From assembly GCA_030627155.1 (NCBI GenBank), contig DAOUSP010000001.1, positions 1 through 38,731 on the forward strand: a stretch of DNA of 38,731 bases, written 5' to 3'. Positions within the stretch are counted from its first letter, which is position 1; each line of letters starts with the position of its first letter. The notes beneath the pieces were generated by a model. The model was not told where the DNA came from. It searched no databases and was given only the letters and a program-made list of their open reading frames with translations. The position numbers were made by a program, and so were the translations under genes. Source of the stretch: Candidatus Aminicenantes bacterium. GTDB lineage: Bacteria; Acidobacteriota; Aminicenantia; Aminicenantales; Aminicenantaceae. Below, piece by piece: positions 5,862 through 29,458 of the stretch.

Positions 5862-6260
5862 TTAATATATAATTTCTCTGTCGATTTTATCTGAAACCTG
5901 TTCCAGTATATAAATCGGTGGAGGCTCCTGGGAAAGCATTCGGATTTCCCCTAAATAATGAACCGGTTCAGTAATAGGAATGATTATTTCTTTACCGCGT
6001 TCCTCCATCTTCTGGAACTCTGAGGACATCTTTTTTCCTAAAGCCGCCGTCTTAATAGACTCCTTCCTGGGAACTATAAATACATTGATGATAATAAATA
6101 CAGCAGCAAGTGCTGCAAATGCACCTGCAAAAGAGAACTGGAGACGCCTTGCTTTAACTTTCTTCCTTTTCTCAATTTCCAGGTTTCTCCATAGTTTTTG
6201 TTCAAAATCCGGAGGAGCTTTTACTCTTTGCATATTTTGTAAGAGTTTAATTTCATCCAT
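5862..6260 (-). CDS. Putative single-pass anti-sigma factor
   Basis: 132 aa. The start overlaps the stop of the upstream ECF sigma gene by 8 nt. There is one central TM segment (FSFAGAFAALAAVFIIINVFIV). The call rests on position and topology only. Confidence 0.5.
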   Translation of the reverse strand: MDEIKLLQNMQRVKAPPDFEQKLWRNLEIEKRKKVKARRLQFSFAGAFAALAAVFIIINVFIVPRKESIKTAALGKKMSSEFQKMEERGKEIIIPITEPVHYLGEIRMLSQEPPPIYILEQVSDKIDREIIY

Positions 6261-11202: not shown

Positions 11203-12003
11203 TCATTCTCTCAGGAAAATCCATTCGGGGTTGTCATGCCTTTCCTTCAGAATTTTTTGGATCTCTTTACGCTCTTCCTCTGTAAATATTTTTGGTCTTA
11301 GTATGACTCCAAAATAATCTGACATCCCTTCAGTCAAGCATGCAACAACTTCATCAAAACCGACATCTCTTCCAAGTGCTTCTGAGAGGGACATCATGCG
11401 TATATTGTTACTATCAGGAGCCATGAAAGACACAGATTTCAGTATTTCCTCATTATTTTTCACTGGTATCGACCCATGTTGCAGAAACCTTTTTCCCATT
11501 CTTTTTTGAGCACTTCCAATGATTTTTTTTCCATTGATTTCTATCTCATTACGGGCAGGAAATGAAAAACAAGGAAGCGTTCCTCTTACATAAGAAGAAG
11601 GGGGAGTCTCTGCAAGATAAGGATGAAGCTCCATTTTCTCCAACCCGCACATCAGTGCCTCAGATATCATTTTGTAAGACTCCTGAAGTGTTGCTGTAAA
11701 CACCCTCTCATCTGACGAACATACAGAATATGTAACTTCTTCATGGTGAAGGACTAATTTCCCTCCAGTCAGCCGTCTGACAATATCAATGCCATTCGCA
11801 TTGCAAAACTCCACATCCACAACTTTGTGCAAACTCTGTGAATATCCAAGAGAAACCGTAGGCTTTTCCCACGCATAAAACCGCACATATGTGACTGGAT
11901 CGTCTCCAAGGGAATGAAATAGAAAGTCGTCCACAGCCATATTCCAGGAGCCTTTCAAGGGAATTGAATCAGTGATAAGATTCCATTCTTTGTTCTTTTG
12001 CAT
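11203..12003 (-). CDS. Lipoate-protein ligase / octanoyltransferase family protein (BPL_LplA_LipB domain)
   Basis: VRFYAWEKPTVSLGYSQ, RRLTGGKLVLHHEEVTYSV and INGKKIIGSAQKR blocks are present. I place the start at the ATG at 12003; the track start at 12009 is TTG. Confidence 0.75.
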   Translation of the reverse strand: MQKNKEWNLITDSIPLKGSWNMAVDDFLFHSLGDDPVTYVRFYAWEKPTVSLGYSQSLHKVVDVEFCNANGIDIVRRLTGGKLVLHHEEVTYSVCSSDERVFTATLQESYKMISEALMCGLEKMELHPYLAETPPSSYVRGTLPCFSFPARNEIEINGKKIIGSAQKRMGKRFLQHGSIPVKNNEEILKSVSFMAPDSNNIRMMSLSEALGRDVGFDEVVACLTEGMSDYFGVILRPKIFTEEERKEIQKILKERHDNPEWIFLRE

Positions 12004-12105
12004 TAACAAAATACTAATCCTTTTTCATGTGATTTTCTAACGTGATTCATAATATCGGCTGGCATTCCTAAATGGAACATAGCCCATGAATATAATCAAA
12101 GATAG

Positions 12106-12177
12106 AGCGGACAACGGGATTCGAACCCGCGACCCCGAGCTTGGGAAGCTCGTACTCTACCGCTGAGTTATGTCCGC
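12106..12177 (-). tRNA. tRNA-Gly (anticodon CCC); CCA not encoded
   Basis: Reverse strand: GCGGACA TA ACTC AGCGGTA GAGT A CGAGC TTCCCAA GCTCG GGGTC GCGGG TTCGAAT CCCGT TGTCCGC T. This is a full cloverleaf with a 7-bp acceptor stem, a TTCGAAT T-loop and the anticodon loop TT-CCC-AA. Confidence 0.9.
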
Positions 12178-12203: not shown

Positions 12204-12383
12204 TTAAATTACGTCTTGCTTTTCTCTCTTGATTTCAGCCATTTTTCTACATCCGACTCCATTTATTCTAAATGTTTTCCAAGTTTTTCGCAATGTACTT
12301 TTTTCCCTGTTCCTTTTATAGAGTGTCTTCTTCTGTATCTTAAGCTTTTTGCTGAGCTCGTCTATGGTTAGGGTTTTATCCAT
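12204..12383 (-). pseudogene. Decayed excisionase/AlpA-type HTH gene
   Basis: Frame 1 gives MDKTLTIDELSKKLKIQKKTLYKR and then non-family sequence. The +1 frame continues GTGKKVHCEKLGKHLE*MESDVEKWLKSREK, which is the canonical C-terminus of this HTH family but is interrupted by TAA. The frame break lies near an A-run. Confidence 0.5.
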
Positions 12384-13037
12384 CTTCCCTTATCTTTATA
12401 TGTCTTCTTACTGACTCCAATAGGCCTGCCCGATAAGCTAAGTTCAGATACAGATATAAACCCGCAAGAGAAGTTACTTTCCTCTGAAGACTTAGCCTTC
12501 TCGAATCGCTTTTCGAGGAAATCAGACTGCTAAGTGGGGAGATAAATATCTGGATGAATTGATAGAAGTAAATAAAACAAAAGGCCAAGTTATAGATGCA
12601 TGTAAAATGAAGGACAATAGAATGAGAAAATTGGCCTATAAACTACTATTAGACTACTTTATAAAACAATAAAAATACTGAAAGAAAACTAACCAGTAAT
12701 TGTTGATTTAAATCTGTTTTAAGATAAAGGGATTTATGGAACATTTTTGTGTTTTTCCCTTTTTATTGTTGAAAATGTATATTTTTTTATTTATAATAAT
12801 CAGTCATTTGGTAAGTAGAAAAAGAATGGGATTAAGCAAAAAAATGAAAATTCAAACCTTTTTGAGGGTTAAGCTGGGAATAAGCTTTATTCTGCTCTCC
12901 AACAGGGAGTCCTTGATGGAGCAGAATGTGCAGAGTGAACGAATAATGAGAGATTATGTATACGAATTAATTTAATCGTTTTATTCTCTCTCTGACTGCA
13001 ATAAAAAATTATTATTTTTAATATTGGAGGTGAAATT

Positions 13038-14075
13038 ATGGAATATCGTCTCTTAGGGCGAACGGGAGTGAAAGTCTCTCCCATTTGTTTAGGAACGGAT
13101 TGTTTTGCTGACCCGCTACCGGAAAAGGAATGTGCTAAAATATTAAACAGGGCTGTTGAAGCCGGCATTAACCTTATTGACACTGGAGATTCATATGCAG
13201 AAGGTGAAGGCGAGCGTATCATCGGTCGGACGCTAAAGGAGAGCGGGATGCGCCATGCGGTATTGCTTGAGACGAAGTGTGACCATGGACGGCGCGTTCC
13301 TGGATTGACACTTGATGAATTCGTTCCAGAGGAGCTGCCAAATGAGCATGGTCCAACGCGTTTGAACATAATCCGAGCGTGTGAGGCGTCATTAAAGCGG
13401 TTTCAAACCGACTATATCGATATTTACCTGATGCATCGTCAAGATCTGGAGGTGCATATTGAAGAAACCCTGGGCGCATTGACTGATTTAGTTCGCCAGG
13501 GTAAGGTCCGATATGTTGGCTGCTCGACGCATCCGGCGTGGGCTGTAATGGAGGCCATCATGCTAAGTGAAATGAAAGGTTATGTGCGCTATTCGTTAGA
13601 ACAGCCGCCCTATAATCTTTTGGACCGACGCATCGAGAACGAATTGATTCCGATGGCACAGAAAACTGGTCTTGGAATCATCACCTGGTCTCCCCTGGCA
13701 ATGGGTGTTTTAGTCGGTGTTTATGAGAAAGAAAAAGATTTTCCTCCTGATTCGCGAGCTGCATTGCGTGGCGGATTTTATGCGGAGCGTGTGACGAATA
13801 AAGGTATCGAAGTAGGGAGTAAGTTTGTGAAATTGGCCAAAGAGGCCGGCATGACCCCGGCCCAGCTGGGGGTTCTGTGGTGCAAGGACCAGCCGGGCGT
13901 GACAGCTCCTTTGATTGGTCCTGAGAATCTGGAGCATCTTGAGGACCTGATCCCTGTCATGGGGATGACCCTGGACGATTCGTTGCGTGAAGCCTGTGAC
14001 AACCTAGTGCCTCCGGGGAGTGCTGTGGCTAATTTCCACAATACAGCCGGCTGGATGAAAGCACAGATTTTATAA
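13038..14075 (+). CDS. Aldo/keto reductase family oxidoreductase
   Basis: 345 aa with GGAGG upstream. MEYRLLGRTGVKVSPICLGT, INLIDTGDSYAEGEGERIIG, DYIDIYLMHRQD, GKVRYVGCST and WSPLAMGVL are all present. The DNA is visibly more GC-rich than its neighbours. Confidence 0.9.
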   Translation: MEYRLLGRTGVKVSPICLGTDCFADPLPEKECAKILNRAVEAGINLIDTGDSYAEGEGERIIGRTLKESGMRHAVLLETKCDHGRRVPGLTLDEFVPEELPNEHGPTRLNIIRACEASLKRFQTDYIDIYLMHRQDLEVHIEETLGALTDLVRQGKVRYVGCSTHPAWAVMEAIMLSEMKGYVRYSLEQPPYNLLDRRIENELIPMAQKTGLGIITWSPLAMGVLVGVYEKEKDFPPDSRAALRGGFYAERVTNKGIEVGSKFVKLAKEAGMTPAQLGVLWCKDQPGVTAPLIGPENLEHLEDLIPVMGMTLDDSLREACDNLVPPGSAVANFHNTAGWMKAQIL

Positions 14076-14302
14076 AGTGTGAGAAAGCGCACAATATTGA
14101 TCATGCCACCAAAGGATGTCTTTTTTAAAAAAATCTGGCATCTGGTGCATGACAATGGCATCAAACAGGTCATTCCAAAATTGATATCATAGACGTGAAA
14201 GACCAATGATGCAACCACAGAAAGTGGGATGTATAAAGTATACCCTAAATAAGAACCTAATGAATATATAGGAACACTGTTATATAAGGAGATATAACTA
14301 AA

Positions 14303-15196
14303 ATGAAAAAAGAAAAAAAATTAATCCCTCAAATTGATGGAGAGTGGTGGACTATTGCAGGCAACCCGGATCTTGGCCATTATAATACAGAAAAACAGCA
14401 ACCATTGGATTTTGGCATTTGGCAGGCAGCCGATAAAACCTGGCAGTTATGTTCTTGTATACGCAGGACCGGCTGTGGCGGGAGAGGCAGGTTGTTTTAT
14501 CGCTGGCAGGCAGATTTGCTAACAGATAAAAATTGGACTCCTAAGGGGATTTTCATGGAGGCAGATCCTAATTTCGGAGAAAGAATTGGAGGACTCCAGG
14601 CGCCATTTGTTCTTAATCACAGGAGTGAGTATTATATGTTTTATGGTGACTGGGTACATATTTGCATGGCCTGGAGCAGTGATGGAAAATCATTCGCCCG
14701 ACTTCTCAACCCTGATAATTTAAGCGGTCTCTTTACAGAAGGTCATCGCACAAGTACAAGGGATCCTATGGTTATGGCCTTTAGAAATAAATTTTATCTC
14801 TATTATACTGGAGTGCCGGAAGAAAAAGGAGCTATTTATTGTAGAACTTCAACTGATTTACATAACTGGGGAGATTCAGTAATTGTTTGCAGTGGTGGAA
14901 GTGGGGGCAGTGGACCTTCAGACGCTGAATGCCCATTTGTAATATATCTACCGGAAGAATATTCTTTTTATTTGTTCAGAGCAAATCCTTCAAAGCAAAA
15001 TGGCGAGTATGAAACATCTGTCTATTGTTCAAGCGATCCTCTAAATTTTGGAATTGATGATGATCAGTATAAGATTTGCACTTTGCCTGTAGAGGTTGCC
15101 AGAATTATTCAACATGACAGGCAATTTTACATTGCCGCGCTTAAACCTGATTATACGGGAATGAGAATGGCACGATTAAAATGGGTGCAGGCTTAA
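14303..15196 (+). CDS. Five-bladed beta-propeller glycoside-hydrolase-like protein (GH43/32-clan-like); no signal peptide
   Basis: 297 aa with AAGGAG upstream. The blocks RDPMVMAFRNKFYLYYTG and ECPFVIYLPEEYSFYLF are typical of this fold. The family assignment is tentative. Confidence 0.45.
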   Translation: MKKEKKLIPQIDGEWWTIAGNPDLGHYNTEKQQPLDFGIWQAADKTWQLCSCIRRTGCGGRGRLFYRWQADLLTDKNWTPKGIFMEADPNFGERIGGLQAPFVLNHRSEYYMFYGDWVHICMAWSSDGKSFARLLNPDNLSGLFTEGHRTSTRDPMVMAFRNKFYLYYTGVPEEKGAIYCRTSTDLHNWGDSVIVCSGGSGGSGPSDAECPFVIYLPEEYSFYLFRANPSKQNGEYETSVYCSSDPLNFGIDDDQYKICTLPVEVARIIQHDRQFYIAALKPDYTGMRMARLKWVQA

Positions 15197-15342
15197 GATT
15201 ACCAACGAAACTTTTATAAAAAAATTAATCAAAATTTTCAGAATCAATCCAGCATTGACGTATTTAAGGTTTTTACTTAAGTATACATTATTGCGAGGAA
15301 GCTCTAATCACAAACTATTTCAATAGCTTCTTCATCTCGTCA

Positions 15343-16302
15343 TCATAGCCCGTCATCTCCCACCGGATTAGAGACATAGGAATCATCTGTATTCAAATAA
15401 TCCTGAGTCGTAAAAATCTCCTCCTCTCTGAGGAATTTACTGGCGTGATCAAGTGATTCCCTGACACTCTTCTTGTATTCCTCCTGGGATGAAACCGGCT
15501 TGAGCGGGGGGAGATTTCGGTTTCTGTTTTCCTCTAATTTCAGAAACGTTATAACACGATTGTCTTCATGTGCCACGATGTCCCGACATTGCTCCCAAGT
15601 ATAAGGAAACAGATGAACATTCTTGAGCCACCAATTGTAATTCTCCTTTCCTACTCCGGCGGGGGCTGTCATCTTGTGCTTGTTCTCTTCAAGCCATTTA
15701 GCATAGTCTTCCACAGCTTCCTGAGCTTGCGTGGCATTTGCTGCCAAATCCGTATGATACTTGGCAAGCCAATTTGCAAGTTTATGGTACTCTTCACTCT
15801 CCTCCTTTGCACTCCAAATAGCCATGATTGCAAAATCTTTTGCGCCTTCGGTCAGATTTTGCTTGGCCCGTTCGTATATCTCAGGAATAGCCTTTAGCTG
15901 TTTCCTTAATTCATCAATCTTATCCTCCGGGAGAGGTAGACTTTCAGGAATCCGAAGAGTGATGTGAATTACAGGTCCTGCTCCTCCTTGGGAAGGAAGA
16001 TAAAAACAGGGGTCTCGGGACCAGGGCCGGAGAACTCGATGCTAAAATTCCAGTCCATTCATCTCTGCACGTACGAGATGATAATCGACTTGCTCGGATA
16101 CCGGCCAGGTGTTTATATCTATGGATGCAAGACGATCTTGAAATTTTTTGAGCCCGCGTTTCTGTTCTTCCATTGCAGCGGCTGTAAAATCGGGTACTCC
16201 GTCAACAACCGCAGGTTTTATGAAATCACGAAACTCCTCAAATAAACTAACAAGGTCGGAATAATCACCATTCGATTTTTTCAGTTTATATCTTTTTTCC
16301 AT
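15343..16302 (-). pseudogene. DUF885-family gene with one in-frame TAG and a missing C-terminal half
   Basis: ORFs 16042..16302 and 15343..15825 are in the same frame and are joined by open sequence (HRVLRPWSRDPCFY...EIYERAKQNLTEGAKDFAIM). The only interruption is the TAG at 16042-16044. The total is about 319 codons against a remembered family length of about 550, and no continuation exists below 15343 in any frame. Confidence 0.55.
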
Positions 16303-17387
16303 CCCATCTCCTTGAAGAACTCTTCCCGGGAAGGAAATAAAAATGTAAGTATATCATACAGCTCCTGGTCGAGTACTTTGAGGTTTTCCGGTTTCAGCGG
16401 CGTGCCTTTATAGGACCGGTGAGAGCGGACGCCGTAATATATATCAAGACCAAAGGCTAGATATTCATCAGGATAATCGTCGGCAGGCAATCCATCCTGT
16501 GGACGGTAAAAGCCCCGCTTGACAGCTTCTTGTGTAGCATGTTCAAGCCGCTTCTGGACACCCGGATATGCCTCCATGATGCCTCCTCTATGGATCAGAT
16601 GGGTAATTTCCTCAACAGAGGCATCACGACGCAAGTTTCTCGGTCCGCCAAGCCGCAAATAATCAGGGATAATCTCTTCGTCCTCAAGGTCTTGAGTCTG
16701 TAAGCCAAGGCTTCGACCATGCATGTAAAAACCAATCGAGGTGTTGCGCTCCTCGAAGGTCTTAAAAATTGTCATTACTACATTCTTTTGCCCAAGGTAT
16801 TCAGAGATTCTTCCTGATCCTTTTCTGTCCTTGGAAAGCAGGGCATTGGCGACCTTCGCCGCATATTCGACCTTTTCGGGATCTACCGTCTCCGTAGCGA
16901 AAAAGCGCATTGACCCAGCTTCTATTCGCTGGGTGAAAATATCCAGTGCATTTTCTTTTTTCGGCGTTTCTTCGAGCGCAATGATGATAAGAACCTGTTC
17001 CATGAACCCGTCCTCGTTGGTAGCGCGGACTTCAGCGTAATAATGGGCCGGGTATTTGGCGGGATGCTGCTTGAGTCTAATCTCAGCAGTTGCAGCATCG
17101 ATTTCGACGATTTTTGTTGCATCAAGCTGGCCTTCTTTTAGGTAATGTCTCGGGTCCCCTCCGGGCACGGGTGGCACAAGGCTCCAGGTGATTCTTTTGG
17201 GGTTCGGGAACACCAGTTCGATCTTTCCGATAACATCGCCTATTTTTGTTTCCTTTGTCACCAAAAAACGGTCGAACTCGTCGGTAAGAATAGGTTTCTG
17301 TGCGTAGCTCACACTACAGGACAGGGATGCAAACAAAAACGAAATCACTAAAAATGTTGCTTTGCTAAATGTGTTTTTTCTTCGCAT
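16281..17387 (-). CDS. Secreted hypothetical protein with an N-terminal Ig/cadherin-like region
   Basis: 368 aa with a signal peptide (MRRKNTFSKATFLVISFLFASLSCSVSYAQ). The N-terminal ~110 aa look like a cadherin-like beta-sandwich (AEVRATNEDGFMEQVLIIIALE). The C-terminal domain is unrecognised. Confidence 0.55.
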   Translation of the reverse strand: MRRKNTFSKATFLVISFLFASLSCSVSYAQKPILTDEFDRFLVTKETKIGDVIGKIELVFPNPKRITWSLVPPVPGGDPRHYLKEGQLDATKIVEIDAATAEIRLKQHPAKYPAHYYAEVRATNEDGFMEQVLIIIALEETPKKENALDIFTQRIEAGSMRFFATETVDPEKVEYAAKVANALLSKDRKGSGRISEYLGQKNVVMTIFKTFEERNTSIGFYMHGRSLGLQTQDLEDEEIIPDYLRLGGPRNLRRDASVEEITHLIHRGGIMEAYPGVQKRLEHATQEAVKRGFYRPQDGLPADDYPDEYLAFGLDIYYGVRSHRSYKGTPLKPENLKVLDQELYDILTFLFPSREEFFKEMGWKKDIN

Positions 17388-17613
17388 AATCTACCTCTCT
17401 TTAAAATATTTGTTTCCCAATGAGCGGATGGCATCTCCTTAAATGATGGGAAAGCTATTTACAAGATTATAATAGAGATTTTCACTCACAGCAATAATTA
17501 ATTTTCACATGAAAGTTTCTTACGATAATTTATTACTTTTCCATAAAGAATATGTTAACATAAATTATTATATAGAAAATAGCATTCTCATTGTTTGCGG
17601 GTGGGCTTGCACA

Positions 17614-17801
17614 TTATGAAACATGCATGTCGATATGAACCTGAGTCTTTTCAGGATCTTCATTTCCGTTCTGATCCCTGACAAAAATATTCCCAACATG
17701 TGTTTGGGATCGCAATCGGCAACAAACTGTCTGAGTTTCTCTTTGGTAGTTTCGGTAATAAATTTTCTGAGATCTTGTTCCGGTTTATTCCATAGCTCTG
17801 G
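17614..17801 (-). pseudogene. Fragment paralogous to the M24-like gene at 19748..21142
   Basis: The reverse strand reads ...GNIFVRDQNGNEDPEKTQVHIDMHVS*, compared with the intact gene's ...GFIYVNRQIYNKELDPEKTQVPLDLHAAG. The DNA stretch gatcctgaaaagactcaggttcatatcgacatgcatg matches gatcctgaaaagacccaggttcctctcgacttacatgc. There is no start codon and the frame breaks. Confidence 0.45.
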
Positions 17802-17808
17802 TTAAAAA

Positions 17809-19707
17809 CTAATCTTTTTTCTCTTGAATTATTGGCAAAATCATATGGGAAGGAAATTTTCCTGAATGATGGATTGTATTCTCAGCAATACTCCATTCAG
17901 TTTCATCATAATTATTGCCTCCGGTGTTCAGGTTTCGTTCGAACAAAGGAAAATCGCTGCTGGACACTTGCACGCGGATTCTATGTCCCTTTTTAAAGTA
18001 ATTGCTGGTAGCATCCAGATCTATCTGAATCTTATACACCCCTCCCTTTTTCATCCAGACTTTCTTTGTGAACCCTTCTCGATATCTTGCACGTAGAATC
18101 CCCTGTTGTATATTGTAAGCTGTACCATCGGGATACACATCCACAAGTTTAGCAGTGAAATCTGTATCTTTCGCTGATGAAGATACATAAAGGACAGCTG
18201 TTATTGGACCTGTTAATTCAATGCCTTCCTCTAATTCCGGTGTTGTGTAAACCAAAACATCATTACGAATTTCAACTTTAGCTTGATCAATAGCCCCAGC
18301 CGGAGTTCCATATGAGGTGCCACGCTGACCTCCTACAGAAGGGACCGGATTACCCGGATCATAGATAAACTTATCGGAAGGCTCATTCTCTGGCATCTCT
18401 GTCGATAGCCATCCATTTCCATTACGGCTATTCGCATTCCCTTCGCTATGGAGATAATATTTTGTGTATTGAGTCTCCGGCAACGGCCAAACTTCTGCTG
18501 AATGCCATTCATTACGTCCCATCACATAATACTGAACTTTAGGCATATTCGTAATTCCGTTTTCTTCTCCCTTTAACCAGTAATCAAACCACTTGAGAAA
18601 AATTTCCCTATAGTTTAGCCTTGCATCTCCTATATCACGATCACCGACAATTGTGTGTTCTGTGGCCCTCTCGAAGCTGCAATGCGTTGTGGGTGCAATA
18701 ATCACAAACTGATTGTTACGAGCAGTCTCAGAAACGGCATTTTCCCTAAAATAATTGAATTCAAAAAGAGTTTCTTCAACACTCGGGTCATACCAGGTAC
18801 TCATATGGAGCGCCGGTACATCGATTTTTTCCGTACCATCATAATATCCCATTGTATCGTGCCACCATGGATCACCAAAATCTCGTGTTACCAATTCAAC
18901 CCAATCATTGGGAGGTGCACCCGCTTTTTTCATTACGTCAACAAGCGGTAAATACCAATTCAGTTTCTCGAAATCAACTTCCGGAAAATTACTCGGACCT
19001 GGCTCAAAAAATTCACGAATCTTACTAATCTCGGAATCTGATAGACCGGGCGGCGGCTTTAAAGAATACTTACAAGCAGCCTCAAAATACCATGATATAC
19101 TTGCAGCTAAATCAAGAACACCGCCTTTAAAACCAGACCAATATCTATAACGGTCATTGGCTGCACCAATCATTGGACCACACTGCGGTATCATGCAAGT
19201 AAGATTAGGATGTCTTAGGGGAGCTTGCGCGGCTTGAACTTCTGCTGGATAAGAACAGCCATAAGTGCCGATTTTGCCATTACTCCAGGGTTGTTTAGCA
19301 AGCCAATCTACCGTGTCATAGCCGTCCTCGGCCTCATGTCCTGCCGGTGGAGAATAAATGCCTTCGGATTCATATTTTCCCCGGCAGTCTTGTATGGCAA
19401 CGACAAAGCCATGAGAAGCAAACATATAAGCTTGTTCTCTCTTTTCTCGATCTCTATAACCTTTCTTATTATAAGGGGTTCGGATGAGAATAACTGGCAG
19501 CTTTTTTTCTTTATTTTTTGGAAAATAGAGGTCAGTCGATAATCTTATTCCATCTCTCATGGGAACCATGCGGCTTTCTTCCAAACGCACTTCATATTTA
19601 AGCTCAGACACATCTTGTTGCTTTACTGTAAGTGCAGAGCTTTGCGGCACAATAAAGAAAGAAAAAAAGATCAAAAATACCATCCAAAGCTTTATTTTTT
19701 TAAACAT
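17809..19707 (-). CDS. CocE/NonD-family hydrolase (peptidase S15, X-Pro dipeptidyl-peptidase-like), secreted
   Basis: 632 aa with a signal peptide. Diagnostic blocks are VPMRDGIRLSTDLYFP, PVILIRTPYNK, QDCRGKYESEG, DGYDTVDWLAKQPWSNGKIGTYGCSYPA and the C-terminal beta-sandwich region. Confidence 0.85.
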   Translation of the reverse strand: MFKKIKLWMVFLIFFSFFIVPQSSALTVKQQDVSELKYEVRLEESRMVPMRDGIRLSTDLYFPKNKEKKLPVILIRTPYNKKGYRDREKREQAYMFASHGFVVAIQDCRGKYESEGIYSPPAGHEAEDGYDTVDWLAKQPWSNGKIGTYGCSYPAEVQAAQAPLRHPNLTCMIPQCGPMIGAANDRYRYWSGFKGGVLDLAASISWYFEAACKYSLKPPPGLSDSEISKIREFFEPGPSNFPEVDFEKLNWYLPLVDVMKKAGAPPNDWVELVTRDFGDPWWHDTMGYYDGTEKIDVPALHMSTWYDPSVEETLFEFNYFRENAVSETARNNQFVIIAPTTHCSFERATEHTIVGDRDIGDARLNYREIFLKWFDYWLKGEENGITNMPKVQYYVMGRNEWHSAEVWPLPETQYTKYYLHSEGNANSRNGNGWLSTEMPENEPSDKFIYDPGNPVPSVGGQRGTSYGTPAGAIDQAKVEIRNDVLVYTTPELEEGIELTGPITAVLYVSSSAKDTDFTAKLVDVYPDGTAYNIQQGILRARYREGFTKKVWMKKGGVYKIQIDLDATSNYFKKGHRIRVQVSSSDFPLFERNLNTGGNNYDETEWSIAENTIHHSGKFPSHMILPIIQEKKD

Positions 19708-19747
19708 TTTTATTCCTCCTTGTTTTAACTGTACGATTTGCGAATCT

Positions 19748-21142
19748 TTATTTAATTATACGAATCTCCTGGGGCGGTGGATAGAAATACTCGACTCCAC
19801 GTTCAGTGACAATCGCACCGTCATGTAATTGTATAGATAAATATTTCCCTTCACCCCATTCAGGCATCGGCACATAGACCCAGTATTCAAAGTAGAAGTG
19901 GTGATTAAGGGGAAGTATCATATCCCGTTGCCAATCCGGACCTAAAGGACCGATCCTGGGGGCATAAATTCCTGCTCCTGCGGCATGTAAGTCGAGAGGA
20001 ACCTGGGTCTTTTCAGGATCCAGTTCTTTGTTATATATTTGTCTATTTACATAAATAAACCCAGCTTCTTCAATTTTTCGTTTGAGGATTTCAAATGTTT
20101 CACCAGCGGTACGCCCCACTTTGATGTTGTCTTCTAAAATTTCACGGACTTTCATTACATCTGCCCAGGCTTTTTTGATCTTTGGAGGCAGTTCGGTCTC
20201 TCCTTCACGAAGCACATAGCCGTATTCAAACGTGACCTCATAGAAGTTCCCGAACTTCCACTCGGGATGCATATGGCCGCCGCTTTGTCGACCACCTGCC
20301 AGACAAATCAGGTCGCCTCTCTGGAACACATAGTCACCTCTTCTTCTATTTCCGTTCTTATCCACTACAGAACGACTACTTTCAAGATCGCTGAATTTGG
20401 TTACTCCTGGCGCGATTTTATCAAAATCTCTCACTAAAGATTCTGCGATCATTTTACGCATTTTCTTAAATAGTACAATTTCGCTCTTCACTGGTCTCGA
20501 CAAGTAATCTGTTATAAGATATTCAGCAGAGACTATTCTCTTCGCATATTTATCACCGAGAGCTTTGACCAATAGGTTGTAGTCAGTATGCGAAATGCCG
20601 TCGGATCGTAACCTTGGAATCTCATACTCCACGGGAGATCCCAGCTTTTCCAGGTAATTTACACCGATACGTTTGGGGTCGCGTTCAGCAACAAATTCTC
20701 CGATGCCCTCAAATCGGTAATCCAATTCTGTTTTTGGGCCTCCCGGCCATTCGGCCCCTACCGTTTTATAGAATTCTCCTAAAGGAATCCTGGATTCTGG
20801 TTTAGCAATTATATCGTAGGCTCCGCATTCTCGAACCAAATCCGAACTGTAATCGAAAACCACCCGTTCGATCCTGTCACCGCCGCGGTCAGTGAAGATG
20901 AAAATCCCGGAGTTACTTCCCAAGTTACATGCAATGGGATCAGTATTTCCTTCTCTCATGACTTGAATCCACATGTCGATATTGTTCTCCCGCATGACTT
21001 GAGGCAGGATGAGGTCAAACTTGTCCCGGCGAATCTGATTCATCAAGTCCTCTGTAGCATCTGGTTCTTGATCCTGGGCATGGAAACCCTTGACAAGGAT
21101 GAGGATAGAAAATAACATCAGAAAAACCCGAAATTTTTTCAT
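19748..21142 (-). CDS. Secreted M24 (pita-bread fold) peptidase-like protein with a non-canonical metal-ligand set
   Basis: ATG at 21142 with GGAGG 7 nt upstream; the track start at 21160 is less likely. It has a signal peptide (MKKFRVFLMLFSILILVKGFHAQ). The blocks GDLICLAGG, YEVTFEY, LDLHAAGAG, FYFEYWVYVP and IQLHDGAIVTERGVEYF are collinear with PepP/PepQ. Confidence 0.6.
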   Translation of the reverse strand: MKKFRVFLMLFSILILVKGFHAQDQEPDATEDLMNQIRRDKFDLILPQVMRENNIDMWIQVMREGNTDPIACNLGSNSGIFIFTDRGGDRIERVVFDYSSDLVRECGAYDIIAKPESRIPLGEFYKTVGAEWPGGPKTELDYRFEGIGEFVAERDPKRIGVNYLEKLGSPVEYEIPRLRSDGISHTDYNLLVKALGDKYAKRIVSAEYLITDYLSRPVKSEIVLFKKMRKMIAESLVRDFDKIAPGVTKFSDLESSRSVVDKNGNRRRGDYVFQRGDLICLAGGRQSGGHMHPEWKFGNFYEVTFEYGYVLREGETELPPKIKKAWADVMKVREILEDNIKVGRTAGETFEILKRKIEEAGFIYVNRQIYNKELDPEKTQVPLDLHAAGAGIYAPRIGPLGPDWQRDMILPLNHHFYFEYWVYVPMPEWGEGKYLSIQLHDGAIVTERGVEYFYPPPQEIRIIK

Positions 21143-21181
21143 TAATATGCCTCCTCTCATTTAATTGATATCATTATTGGG

Positions 21182-23890
21182 TCATTGTTGATCCTTTATC
21201 CAATAATCCTTCAAAACCAAAACTTTCTTCTTCAAGATTTCGTCACCAGCAGTAAGCATAATCGTATATATCCCTGGCCGTACACGTGTATATTTGTAAT
21301 TGGGATCTGTCTCCCAATTATGGATGTGACGCCTGGTCATAAGAGATTGTCCGTTGATTCCAACCTCTGTATTTTCGCTCCCATACCATTCTAGTTGGTC
21401 ATAGTAATCGAAATATTCCTGGCCCCATTCTGCCTCTGAATCATAGGGAATTCCTCTCGTTTCTTTAAACATTTCTTTTTCTTCTGCGGTCCGCTTTCTT
21501 TTCCATGTAAATGGCCAAATAACACGGTTCAAACCAGGATTATTAGGACCAATTATTTCCTGTAGTATTCTGGCTCCATCATAGACTGTAATTTTAACAT
21601 CACCCTTAACCTTATTTTTCAAATAATAATTGACGACAACTCCCCGTGGCTCATTTTCACCAGCAAAATTTTGAGCACTTCGTGTATACTGACTGATTAT
21701 TTTCCACTGAACCCGTGGTTCAATATCAAAAAGATGGACATTTTTGGTTAAAACTTCAGTATTTAATTCTTGAAGGGGAGAGATATCGGTAATATAAAAC
21801 CCTCTTCCATGCGTTCCAACCACGAGATCGTTTTCACGAGGGTGTATAACCAAATCATAAATAGGAATTGTAGGCATATTGTTCTTCATCTTGGTCCAGT
21901 TTTGGCCTCCATCGATGGTGACATAAACAGCCCGATCAGTCCCGACAAAAAGTAAATTTGGATTCTTATGATCTTCGCGAATGACATTGATTGGTTCCTC
22001 AGGCAGATTATTGGCTATCGAGTTCCAGCTTTCACCAAAATCATTTGTTTTATAGACAAAAGGCCTAAAATCATCACTCCTTAATCCTGATAAAGTAACA
22101 TAAGCAGTTTCAGCATAATGATGAGATGTGATAACCCTGGTTACCCAGTATCCAGGATTATCTGCAATACGCTCATTCAACTTTTTCCAATTAGCACCGC
22201 TATCTTTGCTGATCCAGAGATTTCCATCATCCGTGCCCGCCCAGAGTATACCTTGTTTAACAGGAGATTCAGCTATAGTGGTGATAGTTCCTACTTCTCT
22301 ACGTGGTCGATGCTTCCGTTCTGTGTTGGACAAATCAGGACTTATTTCCTGCCAGCATTCGCCCCGATGCATGGACCGAAGAAGGACATTAGCCCCGTGA
22401 TAAATGACTTTGCTGTTATGAGGTGAAATAAGGATAGGAGCGTTGAAATTAAAGCGGATATTGGAGTTACCACGGTATCTAAGTCTCTTTTTAGTTCCCT
22501 CTTTTTGATCAAATCTGACAATACCACCATTTTGGGTTTCAACGTAGAGCCAACGGCTGTCGCTCGGATCTGCCTGGCAGGATAACCCATCAGCGGTCCC
22601 CACGTGAGACCAGTCCTCAAATCGTATAGGAACATACCCCTTATTGGTGCTCGGACCCTTCCACGTTCCAAAATCTTGCATACCGCCATAGACATTATAA
22701 GGATACTCCATATCAACGCAGATTGCATATAACTGTGCTAATGGCAGTTCATCAGCATGATACCAGTGAAGGCCATCATCATGGGTCATGGCAAATCCAT
22801 AATCATAGCCTGCCAGTATGTTGTTACTGTCTTCAGGGTTGATCCATAATGCATGCCAATCACCACCCCAACGCCAAGCTCTGTCCCATGTTTTACCTCC
22901 ATCTGTAGATTTGTCCATTTGAGCTTGAAAATTGTAAATAATTTCAGGATTATTAGGATCAATCCTTATCTGACCAAAGAATGATCCTCCGCGAATAGCC
23001 TGACCAACCCTTTGCCAGGATTCTCCGCCATCCTCAATCCGGTATATTCCTATACTACGCTTGGGTTCAACAATTGTTGCATACAGGATTTGTGGATTTC
23101 TGAGGTAGATGTCGATACCAATTCTGCCAAGCTTTCCTTCAGGAAGTCCATTGGTAAGCTTTTTCCAGGATTTGCCAGCATCTGAGGATTTGTAGATACC
23201 GCTTCCTTCCCCTTCCTGCCTGTCCCACATAGCTGCATAAAGTATATCTGGGTTAGCAGGATCCATTGCCAGGTCGACTGCTCCGACATATTTACAGTTA
23301 TCCATAACTTCAAGAGATTTTATCCAGGTCTTTCCACCGTTAGTGGTTTTATATACTCCTCTTTCAGTGTTATCGGAAAATCCATGCCCCAAGGCCGCCA
23401 CATAGACAATATCTGGATTTTCAGGATGAATCCTTATTCGTCCGATATAGCGAGAATCTTTTAATCCCATATGTGCCCAGGTTTTTCCTCCATCTGTGGA
23501 TTTATATGCTCCATCTCCATACAATTCGGCAACGTTGGCTTCACCCGTTCCAACCCAGACGATATCAGGGTCAGACCATGACACTTCAACATCACCTGGA
23601 GCAATTGAATTTTCATTATCGAAAATTGGTTCAAATGAGTTGCCATAATTCACAGTTTTCCAGAGCCCACCTGTAGCAGCAACATAAAAGGTATAGGGCT
23701 GCTTTTTCCAATCAGGCACAGCAATATCGATAATTCTCCCTCCCTGTCTCGTAGGCCCAATCGACCGATAATTGAAAAGCTTCAAAAAATCCTCAGAAAA
23801 TTCTTGTCCGAACGCATCTGGAATAGAAAATAAAATAAAAAAAAGAAAAACAATAAGCAAACTACAAAATGGTTTAAATTTTCTCTTCAT
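21182..23890 (-). CDS. BNR/Asp-box repeat beta-propeller protein (sortilin/VPS10-like 'glycosyl hydrolase'), secreted
   Basis: 902 aa with a signal peptide. There are about nine Asp-boxes: STDGGKTW (x2), TTNGGKTW, SSDAGKSW, EDGGESW, THDDGLHW, SKDSGANW, TNDFGESW and TIDGGQNW. Confidence 0.8.
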   Translation of the reverse strand: MKRKFKPFCSLLIVFLFFILFSIPDAFGQEFSEDFLKLFNYRSIGPTRQGGRIIDIAVPDWKKQPYTFYVAATGGLWKTVNYGNSFEPIFDNENSIAPGDVEVSWSDPDIVWVGTGEANVAELYGDGAYKSTDGGKTWAHMGLKDSRYIGRIRIHPENPDIVYVAALGHGFSDNTERGVYKTTNGGKTWIKSLEVMDNCKYVGAVDLAMDPANPDILYAAMWDRQEGEGSGIYKSSDAGKSWKKLTNGLPEGKLGRIGIDIYLRNPQILYATIVEPKRSIGIYRIEDGGESWQRVGQAIRGGSFFGQIRIDPNNPEIIYNFQAQMDKSTDGGKTWDRAWRWGGDWHALWINPEDSNNILAGYDYGFAMTHDDGLHWYHADELPLAQLYAICVDMEYPYNVYGGMQDFGTWKGPSTNKGYVPIRFEDWSHVGTADGLSCQADPSDSRWLYVETQNGGIVRFDQKEGTKKRLRYRGNSNIRFNFNAPILISPHNSKVIYHGANVLLRSMHRGECWQEISPDLSNTERKHRPRREVGTITTIAESPVKQGILWAGTDDGNLWISKDSGANWKKLNERIADNPGYWVTRVITSHHYAETAYVTLSGLRSDDFRPFVYKTNDFGESWNSIANNLPEEPINVIREDHKNPNLLFVGTDRAVYVTIDGGQNWTKMKNNMPTIPIYDLVIHPRENDLVVGTHGRGFYITDISPLQELNTEVLTKNVHLFDIEPRVQWKIISQYTRSAQNFAGENEPRGVVVNYYLKNKVKGDVKITVYDGARILQEIIGPNNPGLNRVIWPFTWKRKRTAEEKEMFKETRGIPYDSEAEWGQEYFDYYDQLEWYGSENTEVGINGQSLMTRRHIHNWETDPNYKYTRVRPGIYTIMLTAGDEILKKKVLVLKDYWIKDQQ

Positions 23891-24211
23891 GGTTTTACCC
23901 CTTCATAAAAAATGTTATTTAATCACATACCATTTAATCTGGCGTCCTCCTAAATATTCGATACCTATTTCTGTAAAGGCAACGGTTTGTTCGAGCACAA
24001 TCCGGACATCCTGACCGCTCCACTCATAAACTGCAGATCTATTATCCAATTCCATTATATAAAAATGTTTTTTTATTTATACTTAATGCTTGTATTTTGT
24101 CTATTTTTTCTCATCTAACCTTCTTATATTTTCACAGAAATAAGCAAAAGGTTTATTTATCAAAATATTATCACGTTTTTCTCTTTTTTTCCACAAATTT
24201 TTCAATATTCT

Positions 24212-24334
24212 TTGAATAAGTGGGATATCTTACCAATCGTAATTCTCGGATTATTCATCTTAACAAGATTCTTTTGTCGATTTTTCTGCCCTGTGGGAGT
24301 AGTAGGCTCAACTAAAAAAGAAAACCCATTCTAA
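24212..24334 (+). pseudogene. Possible relic of a NapH/FixG-type polyferredoxin membrane protein
   Basis: 41 codons reading (L)NKWDILPIVILGLFILTRFFCRFFCPVGVVGSTKKENPF*. The TM segment followed by RFFCxxxCPxG resembles the GRxxCGxxCPxG entry motif of that family. It is isolated in AT-rich non-coding DNA. Confidence 0.25.
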
Positions 24335-24584
24335 GCAGGCCTACAGGCAGCTTCACTCCTTTAGCCCAAAACAACACTCTTCTCATCTTAAATGTTAAAT
24401 TGGGAAATTGTTATCGGCCATTTTTTTCATTGTCTTTATCTCCACTTTCGTAGATGGGATTTTACAGGTACTGAAAATTCGGGACATGACTTTAATTCGA
24501 AGAATTAAGGATCGTATCCCAGTTATTTTCAAAAATCTTAGTTGTTTTCCCAGGTTGTATCTCGATATTTGACTCAGATATACA

Positions 24585-25046
24585 TTATTGCGATGAACCA
24601 AAATTATAAACTGCTGCTACGGTCACGTTCGCAATTTCTCTTACTTTATGAGCTACTACCTTCATCTTTATCTCACCCTTCCAGCCTCGGGCTGATAACA
24701 TCTCGTTCAGGCCTTTACTAATCTCCTCTTCACACTCTTTTTGGCCATATTCACCTCTTGATTCAATGAACAATCCTCCCTCCTTGGTTTGAACCCAGCC
24801 TAATCCAGCCGAGATTTGAGCATTTGGTTTATTACTACTAAAACTGGAAATTACAACATACAAGATATCACCAATTTTGCGAGAAGATTCATAGGTTTCA
24901 ACCTCAGATACTCTTGCATCCTGAGGAATTACCGAGCTTAAAGAGATTAGATTGAAATTGTGAATTCCTGCTTTTAGCAGAGCTTTGTCAAAAGAACTTA
25001 TTAAAGTTTTTCCTTCACTTTTTCCCCAGACTATTTTAATTTCCAT
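24585..25046 (-). CDS. pdaD: Pyruvoyl-dependent arginine decarboxylase
   Basis: About 153 aa. EGKTLISSFDKALLKAGIHNFNLISLSSVIP contains the Ser-Ser self-cleavage site. AAGGAG lies 10 nt before the ATG at 25046; the track start at 25055 sits too close to the SD. Confidence 0.85.
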   Translation of the reverse strand: MEIKIVWGKSEGKTLISSFDKALLKAGIHNFNLISLSSVIPQDARVSEVETYESSRKIGDILYVVISSFSSNKPNAQISAGLGWVQTKEGGLFIESRGEYGQKECEEEISKGLNEMLSARGWKGEIKMKVVAHKVREIANVTVAAVYNFGSSQ

Positions 25047-25258
25047 TATTAGCATGCTCCTTTTTTAATTCTTTCATTTCTTCCTTAATCTTTTTAATAT
25101 TATATTGAAACAACAATTTTGCTACCTTAAATTATTCTTTATTTGATCTTCATCTATCAATTTTTTCCTAATGCTTATAGCAGACTCCAGATTTTCTGTC
25201 AATCAGAAGTAGTACTTATTTTTTTTTAACGTTTTCCAATTTTTTCTTTTTACTCACC

Positions 25259-25287
25259 TTGCATAATTAGAAGTCCTGTGCTATACA
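25259..25287 (+). promoter_or_regulatory. Candidate sigma-70 promoter for the P-loop/OTC transcription unit
   Basis: TTGCAT (25259-25264), a 17-nt spacer, then TATACA (25282-25287) preceded by TGc (extended -10). It lies 52 nt upstream of the ATG at 25340. Confidence 0.35.
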
Positions 25288-25339
25288 ATGGTTTTTAAAA
25301 ATATTTGAATAAAGATCGATCAAAAAAGGAGATGCAGTC

Positions 25340-26679: not shown

Positions 26680-26712
26680 TTGAAATTATTCTATTACATA
26701 GAATAATTTCAA
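26680..26712. promoter_or_regulatory. Perfect 15-3-15 palindrome between the P-loop gene and the OTC gene
   Basis: TTGAAATTATTCTAT tac ATAGAATAATTTCAA. It lies 36 nt after the P-loop stop and 55 nt before the OTC ATG. Confidence 0.6.
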
Positions 26713-26766
26713 TTTAAAAAAAGTGCCTTTCTGAGTCGAGAAGACATGTGAAATAGGAGGAGAAAA

Positions 26767-27768
26767 ATGGCTTACAACTTGAAAAATCGGAATTTTTTGA
26801 AGTTATTGGATTTTACTCCAAAAGAAATTAATTTTCTATTGAACCTTTCTTCTGATCTGAAAAAAGCAAAATATGCAGGAATAGAGCAACCGAGATTAAA
26901 GGGTAAAAATATCGTTTTAATTTTTGAAAAAGAGTCAACTAGAACTAGATGTGCCTTTGAGACAGCAGCTTTTGATCAAGGAGCAAGGGTAACCTATCTC
27001 GCTCCGACAGGTTCTCAGATAGGGAAAAAGGAATCAATGAAAGACACTGCCAGGGTGTTAGGTAGAATGTATGATGGTATTGAATACCGTGGTTTTGGAC
27101 AAGAAATAGTCGAAGAATTAGGCAAGCATGCTGGAGTTCCTGTATGGAACGGCCTTACAAATGAATTTCATCCAACACAAGTTCTATCTGATTTATTGAC
27201 TATGATGGAACATTCTAACAAGCCTTTGAACGAAGTCAAATTTGCTTACTTGGGAGATGCAAGGAATAATATGGGTAATTCACTATTAATAGGCGCCGCA
27301 AAAATGGGCATGGATTTTCGTTCTGTTGCGCCTAAAAGTGTTCAGCCTAACGAGAAACTTTTCAACCAAGCTAAAAAGATAGCGGAGGAAACAGGAGCAA
27401 AGGTATTAGTAACTGACGATTTGAAAAAAGGTGTCAAAGACTGTGATTTTCTCTGTACAGATGTCTGGGTCTCAATGGGAGAACCAGAGACAGTCTGGAA
27501 AGAAAGGATTGAGTTACTAAAACCTTATCAGCTGAATAAGGAAGCTATGGAAATGACAGAAAATCCTCAAGTAAAATTTATGCATTGTTTACCCGCATTT
27601 CATAATCGCGAAACTATCATCGGTGAAGATATTTATCAGAAGTTTGGTCTGGCTGCTATGGAAGTTACCGAGGATGTTTTTGAATCGGAAGCTTCTATTG
27701 TTTTTGATGAAGCTGAAAATAGAGTTCATACAATAAAAGCAATAATGGTTGCCACTTTAGGATGCTAA
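26767..27768 (+). CDS. argF: Ornithine carbamoyltransferase (anabolic ArgF or catabolic ArcB; the direction cannot be read from the sequence)
   Basis: 333 aa with GGAGGAG upstream. [26 protein letters not shown] and FMHCLPAFH are present. The C-terminus [35 protein letters not shown] is nearly collinear with E. coli ArgI. Confidence 0.9.
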
Positions 27769-27819
27769 ATTTTCCAAAATAAAAAATAGGCATACCTTGA
27801 ATTTAATTTCATTTTCTTT

Positions 27820-28108
27820 TTATTTCCACTTCATCCTTTTTATATACTCTCTCACAATAATGGTGGTTCCTCTACTACCCTTAACTGCAGAGCTAGCAGA
27901 AAACAGGGATTCGATAATGCTTTTTCGAGATTCTAATTGGCCTTGGGGAAGGGACGCCTTTTCTCCATCTTCGGTTGCTGTCTTCTTTCATCACAAAAGT
28001 AATAACTGGGAAATCAAGACTATTTTTCTTTAATTCATTTTGCATCTTTTGTTGAACGAAATACCCTATTAATCCTTGTGACTTAGCTAAACAGGCATCA
28101 AGAGGCAT
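27820..28108 (-). pseudogene. arcC: Carbamate kinase (arcC) relic with an internal deletion, a frameshift and truncation
   Basis: The reverse strand gives MPLDACLAKSQGLIGYFVQQKMQNELKKNSLDFPVITFV, against the carbamate kinase (CK) block [28 protein letters not shown]. It jumps directly to KEDSNRRWRKGVPSPRPI, against the CK block KEDAGRGWRKVVPSPKPI; about 40 residues are missing between them. A frame change then gives ESRKSIIESLFSA... and a stop at 27820-27822. Confidence 0.6.
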
Positions 28109-28180
28109 AGGAGGATATGATCTGTTCTACGTCACTTTTATCTAAAATTTGTTTTTCCAACGCCATTTTTTCATCTCTCA

Positions 28181-28272
28181 TCCGGAAAATGGGTCAATTC
28201 TATTTTTTCGCAGATAGCTCACTTCGCATATTAGTTATCATACGATTTCAAAGAATGACCCATTTTACCGGA
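28181..28272. repeat. Inverted repeat of about 20 nt separated by a 50-nt spacer
   Basis: Left arm tccggaaaatgggtcaattct (28181-28201) and right arm agaatgacccattttaccgga (28252-28272) give 19 paired positions with two 1-nt bulges. The repeat lies 26 nt downstream of the amidinotransferase stop, between that gene and the arcC relic. Confidence 0.6.
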
Positions 28273-28297
28273 TAAATTTTTATCTTACTCGCACTTG

Positions 28298-29458
28298 TTA
28301 ATAACCCGGAATTTGTTTCGGGAAATAATCTTCACAGGCGCCCTCTCGATACACATCCAGCGTGGTGCAATGCAGGGCGCCACCAAACGGAATCACCGCT
28401 TCATACGGAACTGGAATTACCTCAAATCCAAGCTTGTCTAACTGCTCTATGTAAGCCGTCTCGTGCGCTTCCACACAGACCGTGTTCGGCCCAAGCGAGA
28501 AGGTATTCATTGAAATCCAGGAGGTGCCCTCATATAGCCCGGTCAGATAGCACTTGTTTTTATGCACGTACATTGGCTTTGCCGCTGGGATAAGTTCCCA
28601 GTCGTTCATCTTTAACAACTTTACTGCTTCCTCCGTGATAGGATGCCATTCCGGATTGTAGACTGCCAGTCCTGGCCGCAGTGGCAACAGATTTACGTCG
28701 ATGTGCCACGGGTGATAATTATTGTCAAACAACACTGGGTGAATACGGATTCCCTTCGCCCCAAAGTAGCGCTTCAACCAGTCCATTCCGCTCCGGTTCG
28801 TCACGACCGAGCACTGCCAGAAAATGTCCTTCCCAAACCTTGCTGCATCTGCTGCATCCCAAAGCGGCTCCTTTTCTGTCAGTTGGAACTTCCACTCGTG
28901 CAGCCGCTTCCGCTTCTCTTCATCCGACCAGACGTTTTCGAAGTAGTAGTAAAAGTTCTTCTCGTAGGATTCGTCCGTTAACCGCGGCTTCGGTGCTGCT
29001 GTCCACAGAAACTCCGGATCCTCCTTGAAGTACTGCTCAAAGAGCGGCCGTAAATTCAGATACTCGTACCACCGCGAGCGGCGGCAGGTCGTAGCTTCCA
29101 TAATCTCGTTCCCAACTGGAAGGAATACGTCACGGACGTTGTTGACCCCGTGCTGGTTCAGCTGCGTCCAATCCGGTGTCGAGACAGCTCGCCGGTCATG
29201 CATCGCAGGGTGAATCACAACTCGATCTACGATGATGCCCCGCTTTTCCATCATCTTCACAAAATTGTCCATTTGCTCGTTGGCCTTATCATACATCTCC
29301 TGCGGGAATGGCCCGAACGATCCCAACGGATACCCACCTTCAGGACGGTGATACCACCAAGCTGGCTCTGGAGCAGGAATATTCGTGCCCTCTGGTCTTC
29401 CCACAATTACACGCTTCAACGGGTCCCACTCATTCCAGGAATTTACAATTTTAGCCAT
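28298..29458 (-). CDS. Amidinotransferase (glycine/inosamine amidinotransferase family, GME superfamily); acceptor unknown
   Basis: 386 aa with GGAGGA upstream. It is collinear by eye with human AGAT: NEWDPLKRVIVGR, GNEIMEATTCRRSRWYEY, TAAPKP, WDAADAARFGKDIF (Asp), PWHIDVN (His) and GGALHCTTLDV (Cys). GC content is much higher than in the flanks. Confidence 0.85.
   Translation of the reverse strand: MAKIVNSWNEWDPLKRVIVGRPEGTNIPAPEPAWWYHRPEGGYPLGSFGPFPQEMYDKANEQMDNFVKMMEKRGIIVDRVVIHPAMHDRRAVSTPDWTQLNQHGVNNVRDVFLPVGNEIMEATTCRRSRWYEYLNLRPLFEQYFKEDPEFLWTAAPKPRLTDESYEKNFYYYFENVWSDEEKRKRLHEWKFQLTEKEPLWDAADAARFGKDIFWQCSVVTNRSGMDWLKRYFGAKGIRIHPVLFDNNYHPWHIDVNLLPLRPGLAVYNPEWHPITEEAVKLLKMNDWELIPAAKPMYVHKNKCYLTGLYEGTSWISMNTFSLGPNTVCVEAHETAYIEQLDKLGFEVIPVPYEAVIPFGGALHCTTLDVYREGACEDYFPKQIPGY

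Follow-up and report, generated by a model that had tools for sequence, protein, structure and literature searches.

Bacterial pseudogenes are reportedly eroded by deletional bias, a process that Mira, Ochman and Moran are said to have described in 2001. The spacer analysed here fits that description. Several deletions have cut a redundant gene down to short pieces that drift towards AT, and the genome is small (1.53 Mb at 83% completeness vs. 2-5 Mb for most family members). The remnant is a pseudogene of the ordinary, eroded kind, left over from a redundant accessory pyrR-arcC module. In comparison with deletional-bias erosion it shows nothing unusual, and the module has eroded in parallel and independently in three genera.

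The arginine synthetase pathway, described by Michimori, Yokooji & Atomi (2024, PMC11032458), is a variant of the arginine deiminase pathway. ArcE is the arginine synthetase of Thermococcus kodakarensis, which together with ArcB and ArcC yields 2 ATP per arginine (PMC11032458). Homologues of ArcE are annotated as "GTPase", show low similarity to cDPG synthase, and adjoin arcB/arcC; carbamoyl phosphate from ArcB can go to pyrimidine synthesis instead of the kinase (PMC11032458).

The window, the whole stretch of 38,731 nucleotides analysed here, comes from a Candidatus Aminicenantes bacterium and resembles this pathway in gene content. P434 (25340..26644, plus strand), a "predicted GTPase / cDPG-synthase-like" protein, fits the published description of ArcE homologues and is probably one itself. 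Public sources label it "GTPase" or "cyclic 2,3-diphosphoglycerate synthase", and its match to cDPG synthetase is weak. It is directly followed by an intact OTC gene of 333 aa (26767..27768, plus strand; NF003286, 577.6 bits, above the cut-off). Based on the labels, the weak cDPG match, and the OTC/arcC neighbourhood, P434->OTC is probably arcE->arcB, with P434 matched to ArcE by description. No match to arcA was found in this genome, an 83%-complete assembly. P434, OTC, arcC, and the amidinotransferase gene cluster in contigs of Aminicenantes, Dehalococcoidia, Desulfobacterales, Anaerolineales, and Bathyarchaeia, and other phyla have one co-directional OTC-arcC-P434-amidinotransferase cluster. 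In contrast to the described pathway, the kinase gene in cis is dead here, and the core arcC on another contig (C205) alone could complete the pathway. In addition, the dead arcC is from a clade linked to pyrR, often with pyrB as the next gene.

Identification of the arcC Relic

The spacer, bounded by the stop codons of the amidinotransferase gene (28298) and of OTC (27768), is 529 bp long (27769-28297). Its minus strand was translated in three frames. An arcC (carbamate kinase) relic lies on this strand at 27860-28135. A residual 71-codon ORF, 27893..28108(-), spans two of its blocks, A and B, and reads MPLDACLAKSQGLIGYFVQQKMQNELKKNSLDFPVITFVMKEDSNRRWRKGVPSPRPIRISKKHYRIPVFC. This ORF matched NCBIfam TIGR00746 in two stretches (E 2.7e-14, 52.9 bits), while the search against Pfam returned zero matches. 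The HMM scan of the whole genome aligned TIGR00746 positions 62-109 to 28135-27992 and positions 147-170 to 27994-27923; the first of these pieces contains one in-frame TAG.

The nearest intact relatives are from two Candidatus Aminicenantes MAGs, L031 (G036:C299, record JAUWSR010000070) and L037 (G074, record CAYPGQ010000001). In tblastn, their ArcC orthologues matched blocks A and B at E 1e-20 to 4e-24, and the alignment is interrupted only once, by a gap of 38 residues.

ArcC (TIGR00746, EC 2.7.2.2) has the amino-acid kinase fold. The L037 protein is full-length and scores 403 bits, above the curated cut-off of 358.25. The relic scores 52.9 bits against the same cut-off with ~27% of the codons left, and it is not a family member. 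Its three blocks are homologous to positions ~62-109, 147-170, and the C-terminal ~20 residues, and it has no full-length match in one open frame of about 310 aa.

The earlier note had reported carbamate kinase blocks on the reverse strand of this seemingly empty spacer and had proposed a translated search against carbamate kinases. The HMM and tblastn results above agree with it, and both are significant. The sequence that it quoted for the 71-codon ORF is identical to the one read here. Its placement of the relic, co-directional with and downstream of the intact amidinotransferase gene and convergent with OTC, also agrees with the gene positions.

Structure of the Relic

The relic DNA aligns with L037 in five collinear blocks (67-95% identity), and the intervening gaps measure 693, ~114, and ~347 bp. 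The first block is the end of the amidinotransferase gene (window 28330-28294 to L037 11129-11165, 86% DNA identity), and the second is the 5' end of pyrR (28159-28117 to 11262-11304, 74%). The remaining three are from arcC: block A (28116-28006 to 11998-12108, 67%, or 74% over 82 nt), block B (27999-27933 to 12229-12295, 82%; 81-82% over 12229-12298), and block C (27923-27860 to 12652-12715, 73-75%). About 1.56 kb in L037 thus corresponds to ~0.44 kb here, with at least three deletions and ~1.1 kb removed.

Block A (28000..28116, minus strand) covers approximately TIGR00746 66-109 and reads PPMPLDAC...NELKKNSLDFPVITFV. Block B (27925..27999, minus strand) covers TIGR00746 147-170 and reads MKEDSNRRWRKGVPSPRPI. 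Both were recovered by the HMM and by tblastn, and they are joined via an in-frame deletion of ~114 bp (38 codons). Block C (27860..27924, minus strand) is in the other frame and contains the last ~21 arcC codons, ESLFSASSAVKGSRGTTII. In tblastn it shows 68-76% identity (76% over 21 residues), with E about 3e-4 to 4e-4 in the 12-kb set and 0.002 in the whole window. In blastp, 13 of 17 residues are identical to the C-terminus of L037 ArcC over the aligned stretch. The assignment of block C to the GGGGIP region was ruled out, as tblastn places it at the ArcC C-terminus.

Altogether, ~87 of 323 arcC codons are left, in three blocks and two frames. At the N-terminus, ~82 residues are missing. Because the last ~21 codons survive, the other ~115 missing residues represent an internal, frame-shifting deletion of ~347 bp. 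Compared with the intact homologues, the gene has been disabled by deletion (693, ~114, and ~347 bp), by a frameshift, and by the in-frame TAG at 28127..28129 on the minus strand, inside the HMM-aligned part of the arcC frame. The anatomy proposed earlier stands in part. The arcC blocks are there, and the fusion of two of them by a deletion of about 40 residues is the single 38-residue gap seen in tblastn. The N-terminal loss was put at ~50 residues and is in fact ~82. The loss of ~120 C-terminal residues is close in size (~115), but the deletion is internal and a C-terminal block is kept. Three deletions and a PyrR relic have to be added to that picture.

The motifs GGNA, HGNGPQVG, GGGGIP, and IDKD are all present in the ArcC proteins of C205, L031, and L037. 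GGNA, GNGPQ, GGGG(IP), and IDKD were found in none of the six frames of 27769-28297. The nucleotide- and phosphate-binding motifs are therefore all gone, and the remnant cannot encode the enzyme. The 71-codon ORF is not preceded by a Shine-Dalgarno sequence, its upstream sequence reading ...CATATCCTCCT. All five intact neighbouring genes have AGGAG or GGAGG. Judged from its sequence, the 71-codon ORF is not a gene. The annotation is corrected on both points: the spacer is not empty, and this ORF should not be counted as a gene.

PyrR-Like Remnant

Directly upstream of the arcC relic, a PyrR-like N-terminal relic of ~16 codons (M-A-L-EKQILDKSDVEQIIS) lies at 28117..28166 on the minus strand. 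The stretch 28166-~28117(-) reads MALEKQILDKSDVEQIIS and aligns with the N-terminal end of the PyrR-like protein encoded directly ahead of arcC in L031 and L037. With L037 PyrR as the tblastn query, 10 of 16 residues are identical (62%, E 0.008); with L031 PyrR, the E value is 0.035. At the DNA level, a 21-nt stretch is 95% identical to the start of L037 pyrR (E 9e-5), and the gene order is collinear. The sequence evidence for this remnant is short but consistent.

PyrR (NF003549) is a bifunctional pyr operon regulator / uracil phosphoribosyltransferase, and L037 PyrR scores 197.7 bits on this model. The remnant corresponds to the N-terminus of the PyrR found ahead of every full-length accessory arcC of the family. 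The PRTase domain is absent, and everything past residue ~17 is deleted. The ~693-bp deletion fused the pyrR remnant to block A, taking the rest of pyrR and the first ~82 arcC codons. The predicted functional PyrR of this genome is a separate core copy on C229; the PyrR scan of the whole genome returned only this copy and a weak match on C73.

Relationship to Intact Carbamate Kinases

The order amidinotransferase->pyrR->arcC is intact at the syntenic position in G036 (L031), G074 (L037), and G027. The idea in the earlier note that an intact arcC might occupy this position in related genomes is borne out by these three loci. In L037 the full order is TRAP transporter (dctPQM) -> amidinotransferase -> PyrR -> ArcC -> PyrB (380 bits) -> AKR ... 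PyrI.

The relic protein is identical to L031 and L037 ArcC at 44-46 of 65 residues, and to the core ArcC on C205 at 32 of 65. Identity is lower to those arcC types that cluster with OTC/P434 in other phyla. The ML tree joins the relic, L031, and L037 in one clade (100/99), with the core copies in a separate one (100/99). The relic's branch has a length of 0.87, compared with about 0.26 for the intact copies. A relative-rate test with a Dehalococcoidia-type sister clade as outgroup counted 9-12 relic-unique changes vs. 2-3 over 87 residues, a significant difference. With the core arcC as outgroup, no excess of relic changes was seen over the same number of residues. Accelerated evolution of the relic is suggested, and with 87 residues available the evidence for relaxed constraint is modest. 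Recent duplication of the core arcC, or gene conversion with it, was ruled out, the DNA similarity between the spacer and C205 being at chance level. The spacer is single-copy in the assembly.

Contig C205 carries the core copy, an intact arcC of 321 aa that exceeds the curated cut-off with 374.6 bits, and directly after it an OTC of 308 aa. The same-genus genome G001 has this arcC->argF pair at 97% identity, and the GC content of C205 is host-like (0.399 vs. 0.389 for the genome). Of the 41 genomes searched in the order, 39 have one arcC above the cut-off, and the adjacency of arcC and OTC is conserved order-wide. A core pyrR->pyrB->pyrC operon is present on contig C229. With both core arcC and core pyrR intact, the two dead genes are redundant second copies, and the organism has not lost carbamate kinase. 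The loss of the kinase step, as claimed earlier, therefore holds for the amidinotransferase/OTC locus and fails genome-wide. One dead copy is no proof that ATP-yielding arginine catabolism has been lost. The arginine synthetase pathway could still operate here if the adjacent probable ArcE->ArcB pair drew on the core kinase.

A search for carB (TIGR01369) found no match in this 83%-complete assembly or in 6 of the 18 further family genomes covered. The arcC->argF pair is kept by nearly all of the genomes in this search. Since carB was not found in several genomes, carbamate kinase may be an anabolic source of carbamoyl phosphate in part of the family.

Distribution and Parallel Loss of the Accessory Module

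Among 96 family genomes searched, eight have a full-length arcC of the relic's clade, and pyrR is directly upstream in all eight. The downstream gene was identified in four of these copies. It is pyrB in G074, G072, and G027, and P434 in G036. Two of the eight full-length copies, those of L138 (G111:C41:906-1841) and L140 (G117:C155:38960-39895), both from one genus, contain one internal TAA each. These could be either early-stage inactivation or sequencing errors.

Independent relics were observed in two other genera. In G022, ~45 bp of the arcC 3' region remain between the amidinotransferase gene and pyrB; L021 4932-4974 (G022:C20) is 79% identical to L037 12592-12634 (E 3e-6). In G008, the last ~66 arcC codons remain upstream of pyrB (E 1e-17; L125, G008:C12). 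The same contig holds a 20-residue relic of the OTC C-terminus, and the L125 intervals are 5888-6082 and 4421-4480. The parts of arcC kept in G022 and G008 differ from each other. In the amidinotransferase->P434->OTC loci without arcC (L033, L034, L041, and L065), no arcC or pyrR relics were detected. Parallel loss of the accessory pyrR->arcC module is thus seen in at least three genera of Aminicenantes, and the core arcC->argF pair is kept almost everywhere. The literature search returned no paper on a PyrR-linked carbamate kinase, and none relevant to carbamate kinase in Aminicenantes.

Origin of the Spacer

The spacer is very probably a decayed two-gene accessory module (pyrR-like -> arcC), shrunk by at least three deletions. 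The ~693-bp deletion would have removed most of pyrR and the first ~82 arcC codons. The ~114-bp deletion would have taken out 38 arcC codons with the frame kept, and the ~347-bp deletion would have taken out ~115 codons and shifted the frame. Loss of the module was probably tolerated because it is redundant with the core copies, of which the arcC->argF pair is vertically inherited. Carbamoyl phosphate from P434 (probable ArcE) -> OTC would still be usable by the core kinase or by ATCase.

The intact amidinotransferase gene next to the relic (28298..29458, minus strand) belongs to the AGAT/SxtG/StrB1 family (phmmer against PDB: SxtG E 3e-59, AGAT E 3e-51). Its orthologues, 82-89% identical, are found in MAGs labelled as several phyla. 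A paralogue with 54% identity is encoded on C40. The gene is a one-gene GC islet, with GC 0.516 and GC3 0.62, vs. GC3 0.30-0.33 for P434/OTC and a genome GC of 0.389.

Comparison with G001 gives a second view of the locus. PvlArgDC and P434 are shared at 95% DNA identity, and synteny ends at window 26729, past which the genes of G001 are unrelated. Neither the 333-aa OTC nor an orthologue of the amidinotransferase or AT5 was found in G001; its sole OTC match is the 308-aa core copy, at 37% identity. In the G001 contig (C200), the counterparts of window ~12788 and ~24599 are adjacent, and similarity to the window stops after 26729. From these junctions, an 11.8-kb hydrolase block (12789-24598) and an OTC-relic-amidinotransferase-AT5 block (26730-~32970) have no counterpart there. 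This suggests that the two halves of the locus have separate histories. In relatives, the genes are co-directional (amidinotransferase->P434->OTC or ->pyrR->arcC->P434), and a rearrangement is thus likely here. An inversion of P434-OTC mediated by inverted repeats found no support, as 25056-25339 and 27769-27900 contain no convincing inverted repeats.

An already truncated amidinotransferase-pyrR'-arcC' fragment might instead have arrived horizontally beside a native P434->OTC pair. The GC islet of the amidinotransferase gene and the end of G001 synteny at 26729, with no amidinotransferase or AT5 orthologue found there, are in line with such an import, and synteny with L037 ends exactly at the arcC stop. 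However, the relic is AT-rich (GC 0.39 vs. 0.46 in the same L037 blocks, with 41 GC->AT and 21 AT->GC differences), while the adjacent amidinotransferase gene is unameliorated. This fits a longer residence of the relic than of the current amidinotransferase allele. OTC, which is likewise missing from G001, has native composition, and the import is without a donor sequence. Import of a truncated fragment is possible but doubtful. In the alternative history, the old module would have decayed in place and the amidinotransferase allele would have been replaced later.

It is very unlikely that the remains have gained a new function, either as a small protein encoded by the 71-codon ORF or at the RNA level, with the spacer giving the amidinotransferase gene a structured 3' end or a regulatory RNA. 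The ORF is open for 71 codons, but it has no ribosome-binding site, unlike all its neighbours, and no catalytic motif, and it is on a long branch. A long hairpin (28181..28275, minus strand; stem ~20 bp, loop ~50 nt) directly follows the amidinotransferase stop, and the fold of 28100-28300(-) has -47.2 kcal/mol with z -3.9. Its right arm is conserved, with window 28202-28178 being 88% identical to L031 9900-9924, just before pyrR, where the conserved stretch forms a shorter hairpin. The hairpin has no U-tract, and it lies upstream of the arcC relic, outside the relic itself. In the spacer, the Rfam search matched no family and no intrinsic terminator pattern was found.

An assembly or sequencing artefact, with an intact arcC in the real genome and a collapsed or chimeric contig, is still harder to accept. 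The MAG is fragmented (245 contigs) and 83% complete, which leaves room for such errors. Against this, the missing ~1.1 kb is spread over three separate gaps, the collinear blocks show a divergence of their own (67-82% identity to the nearest known relatives), and no frame is restorable by correction of point errors. The spacer is also single-copy, and independent relics of the pyrR-arcC module are present in two other genomes. Chance likeness to carbamate kinase, for which the shortness of each block might speak, has a negligible probability and is excluded by the sequence comparisons (E 2.7e-14 with TIGR00746, E 1e-20 to 4e-24 in tblastn), together with the DNA-level collinearity and the syntenic intact orthologues.

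Implications for Arginine Metabolism

The earlier note also stated that the locus once made ATP from carbamoyl phosphate. This is plausible from the gene order of the G036-type arrangement (pyrR-arcC-P434). As the accessory module precedes pyrB in three relatives, an ATP-yielding role of the dead copy is an assumption. The pyrR-arcC-pyrB arrangement fits the use of ArcB-derived carbamoyl phosphate for pyrimidine synthesis (PMC11032458).

The clustering of amidinotransferase, ArcE-like, OTC, and CK genes across anaerobic phyla is a more interesting lead than the relic. One speculative reading, which we consider unlikely, is an undescribed energy-conserving cycle of guanidino compounds. In such a cycle, the amidinotransferase would pass the amidino group of an imported guanidino acid to ornithine to form arginine. 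ArcE, ArcB, and ArcC would then release 2 NH3 and CO2, with up to 2 ATP, and ornithine would be regenerated. In the family, the kinase step would go via the PyrR-linked accessory arcC, perhaps also feeding ATCase, and this copy would be disappearing repeatedly from genomes in which the core kinase is enough. A TRAP transporter is located upstream in two relatives.

Other Elements in the Window and in Relatives

In the gap between the amidinotransferase gene and P434, four relatives (L033 5755-5985, L034 3767-4080, L041 11159-11510, and L065 787-972) share a promoter-like site, TTGACA-N17-TAGAAT, that is conserved among them. Downstream of it is a leader of ~100 nt, likewise conserved, …GTGGGAGATGAGC…TGAACAA.GGGAAG.GACCTGTT.TCAG.CTTTTT, for which the Rfam search found no family. 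The leader may be a novel attenuator or riboswitch. The promoter and leader of these loci are not alignable upstream of P434 in the window.

A repeat of ~55-60 nt at window 24472-24531 (…AAATTCGGGACATGACTTTAATTCGAAGAATTAAGGATCGTATCCCAG…) has three more copies in the genome (C75, C32, and C37) and at least four in G001. A perfect 15+3+15 palindrome is located at window 26680-26712, 55 nt upstream of the OTC start, and promoter-like hexamers on both strands overlap it.
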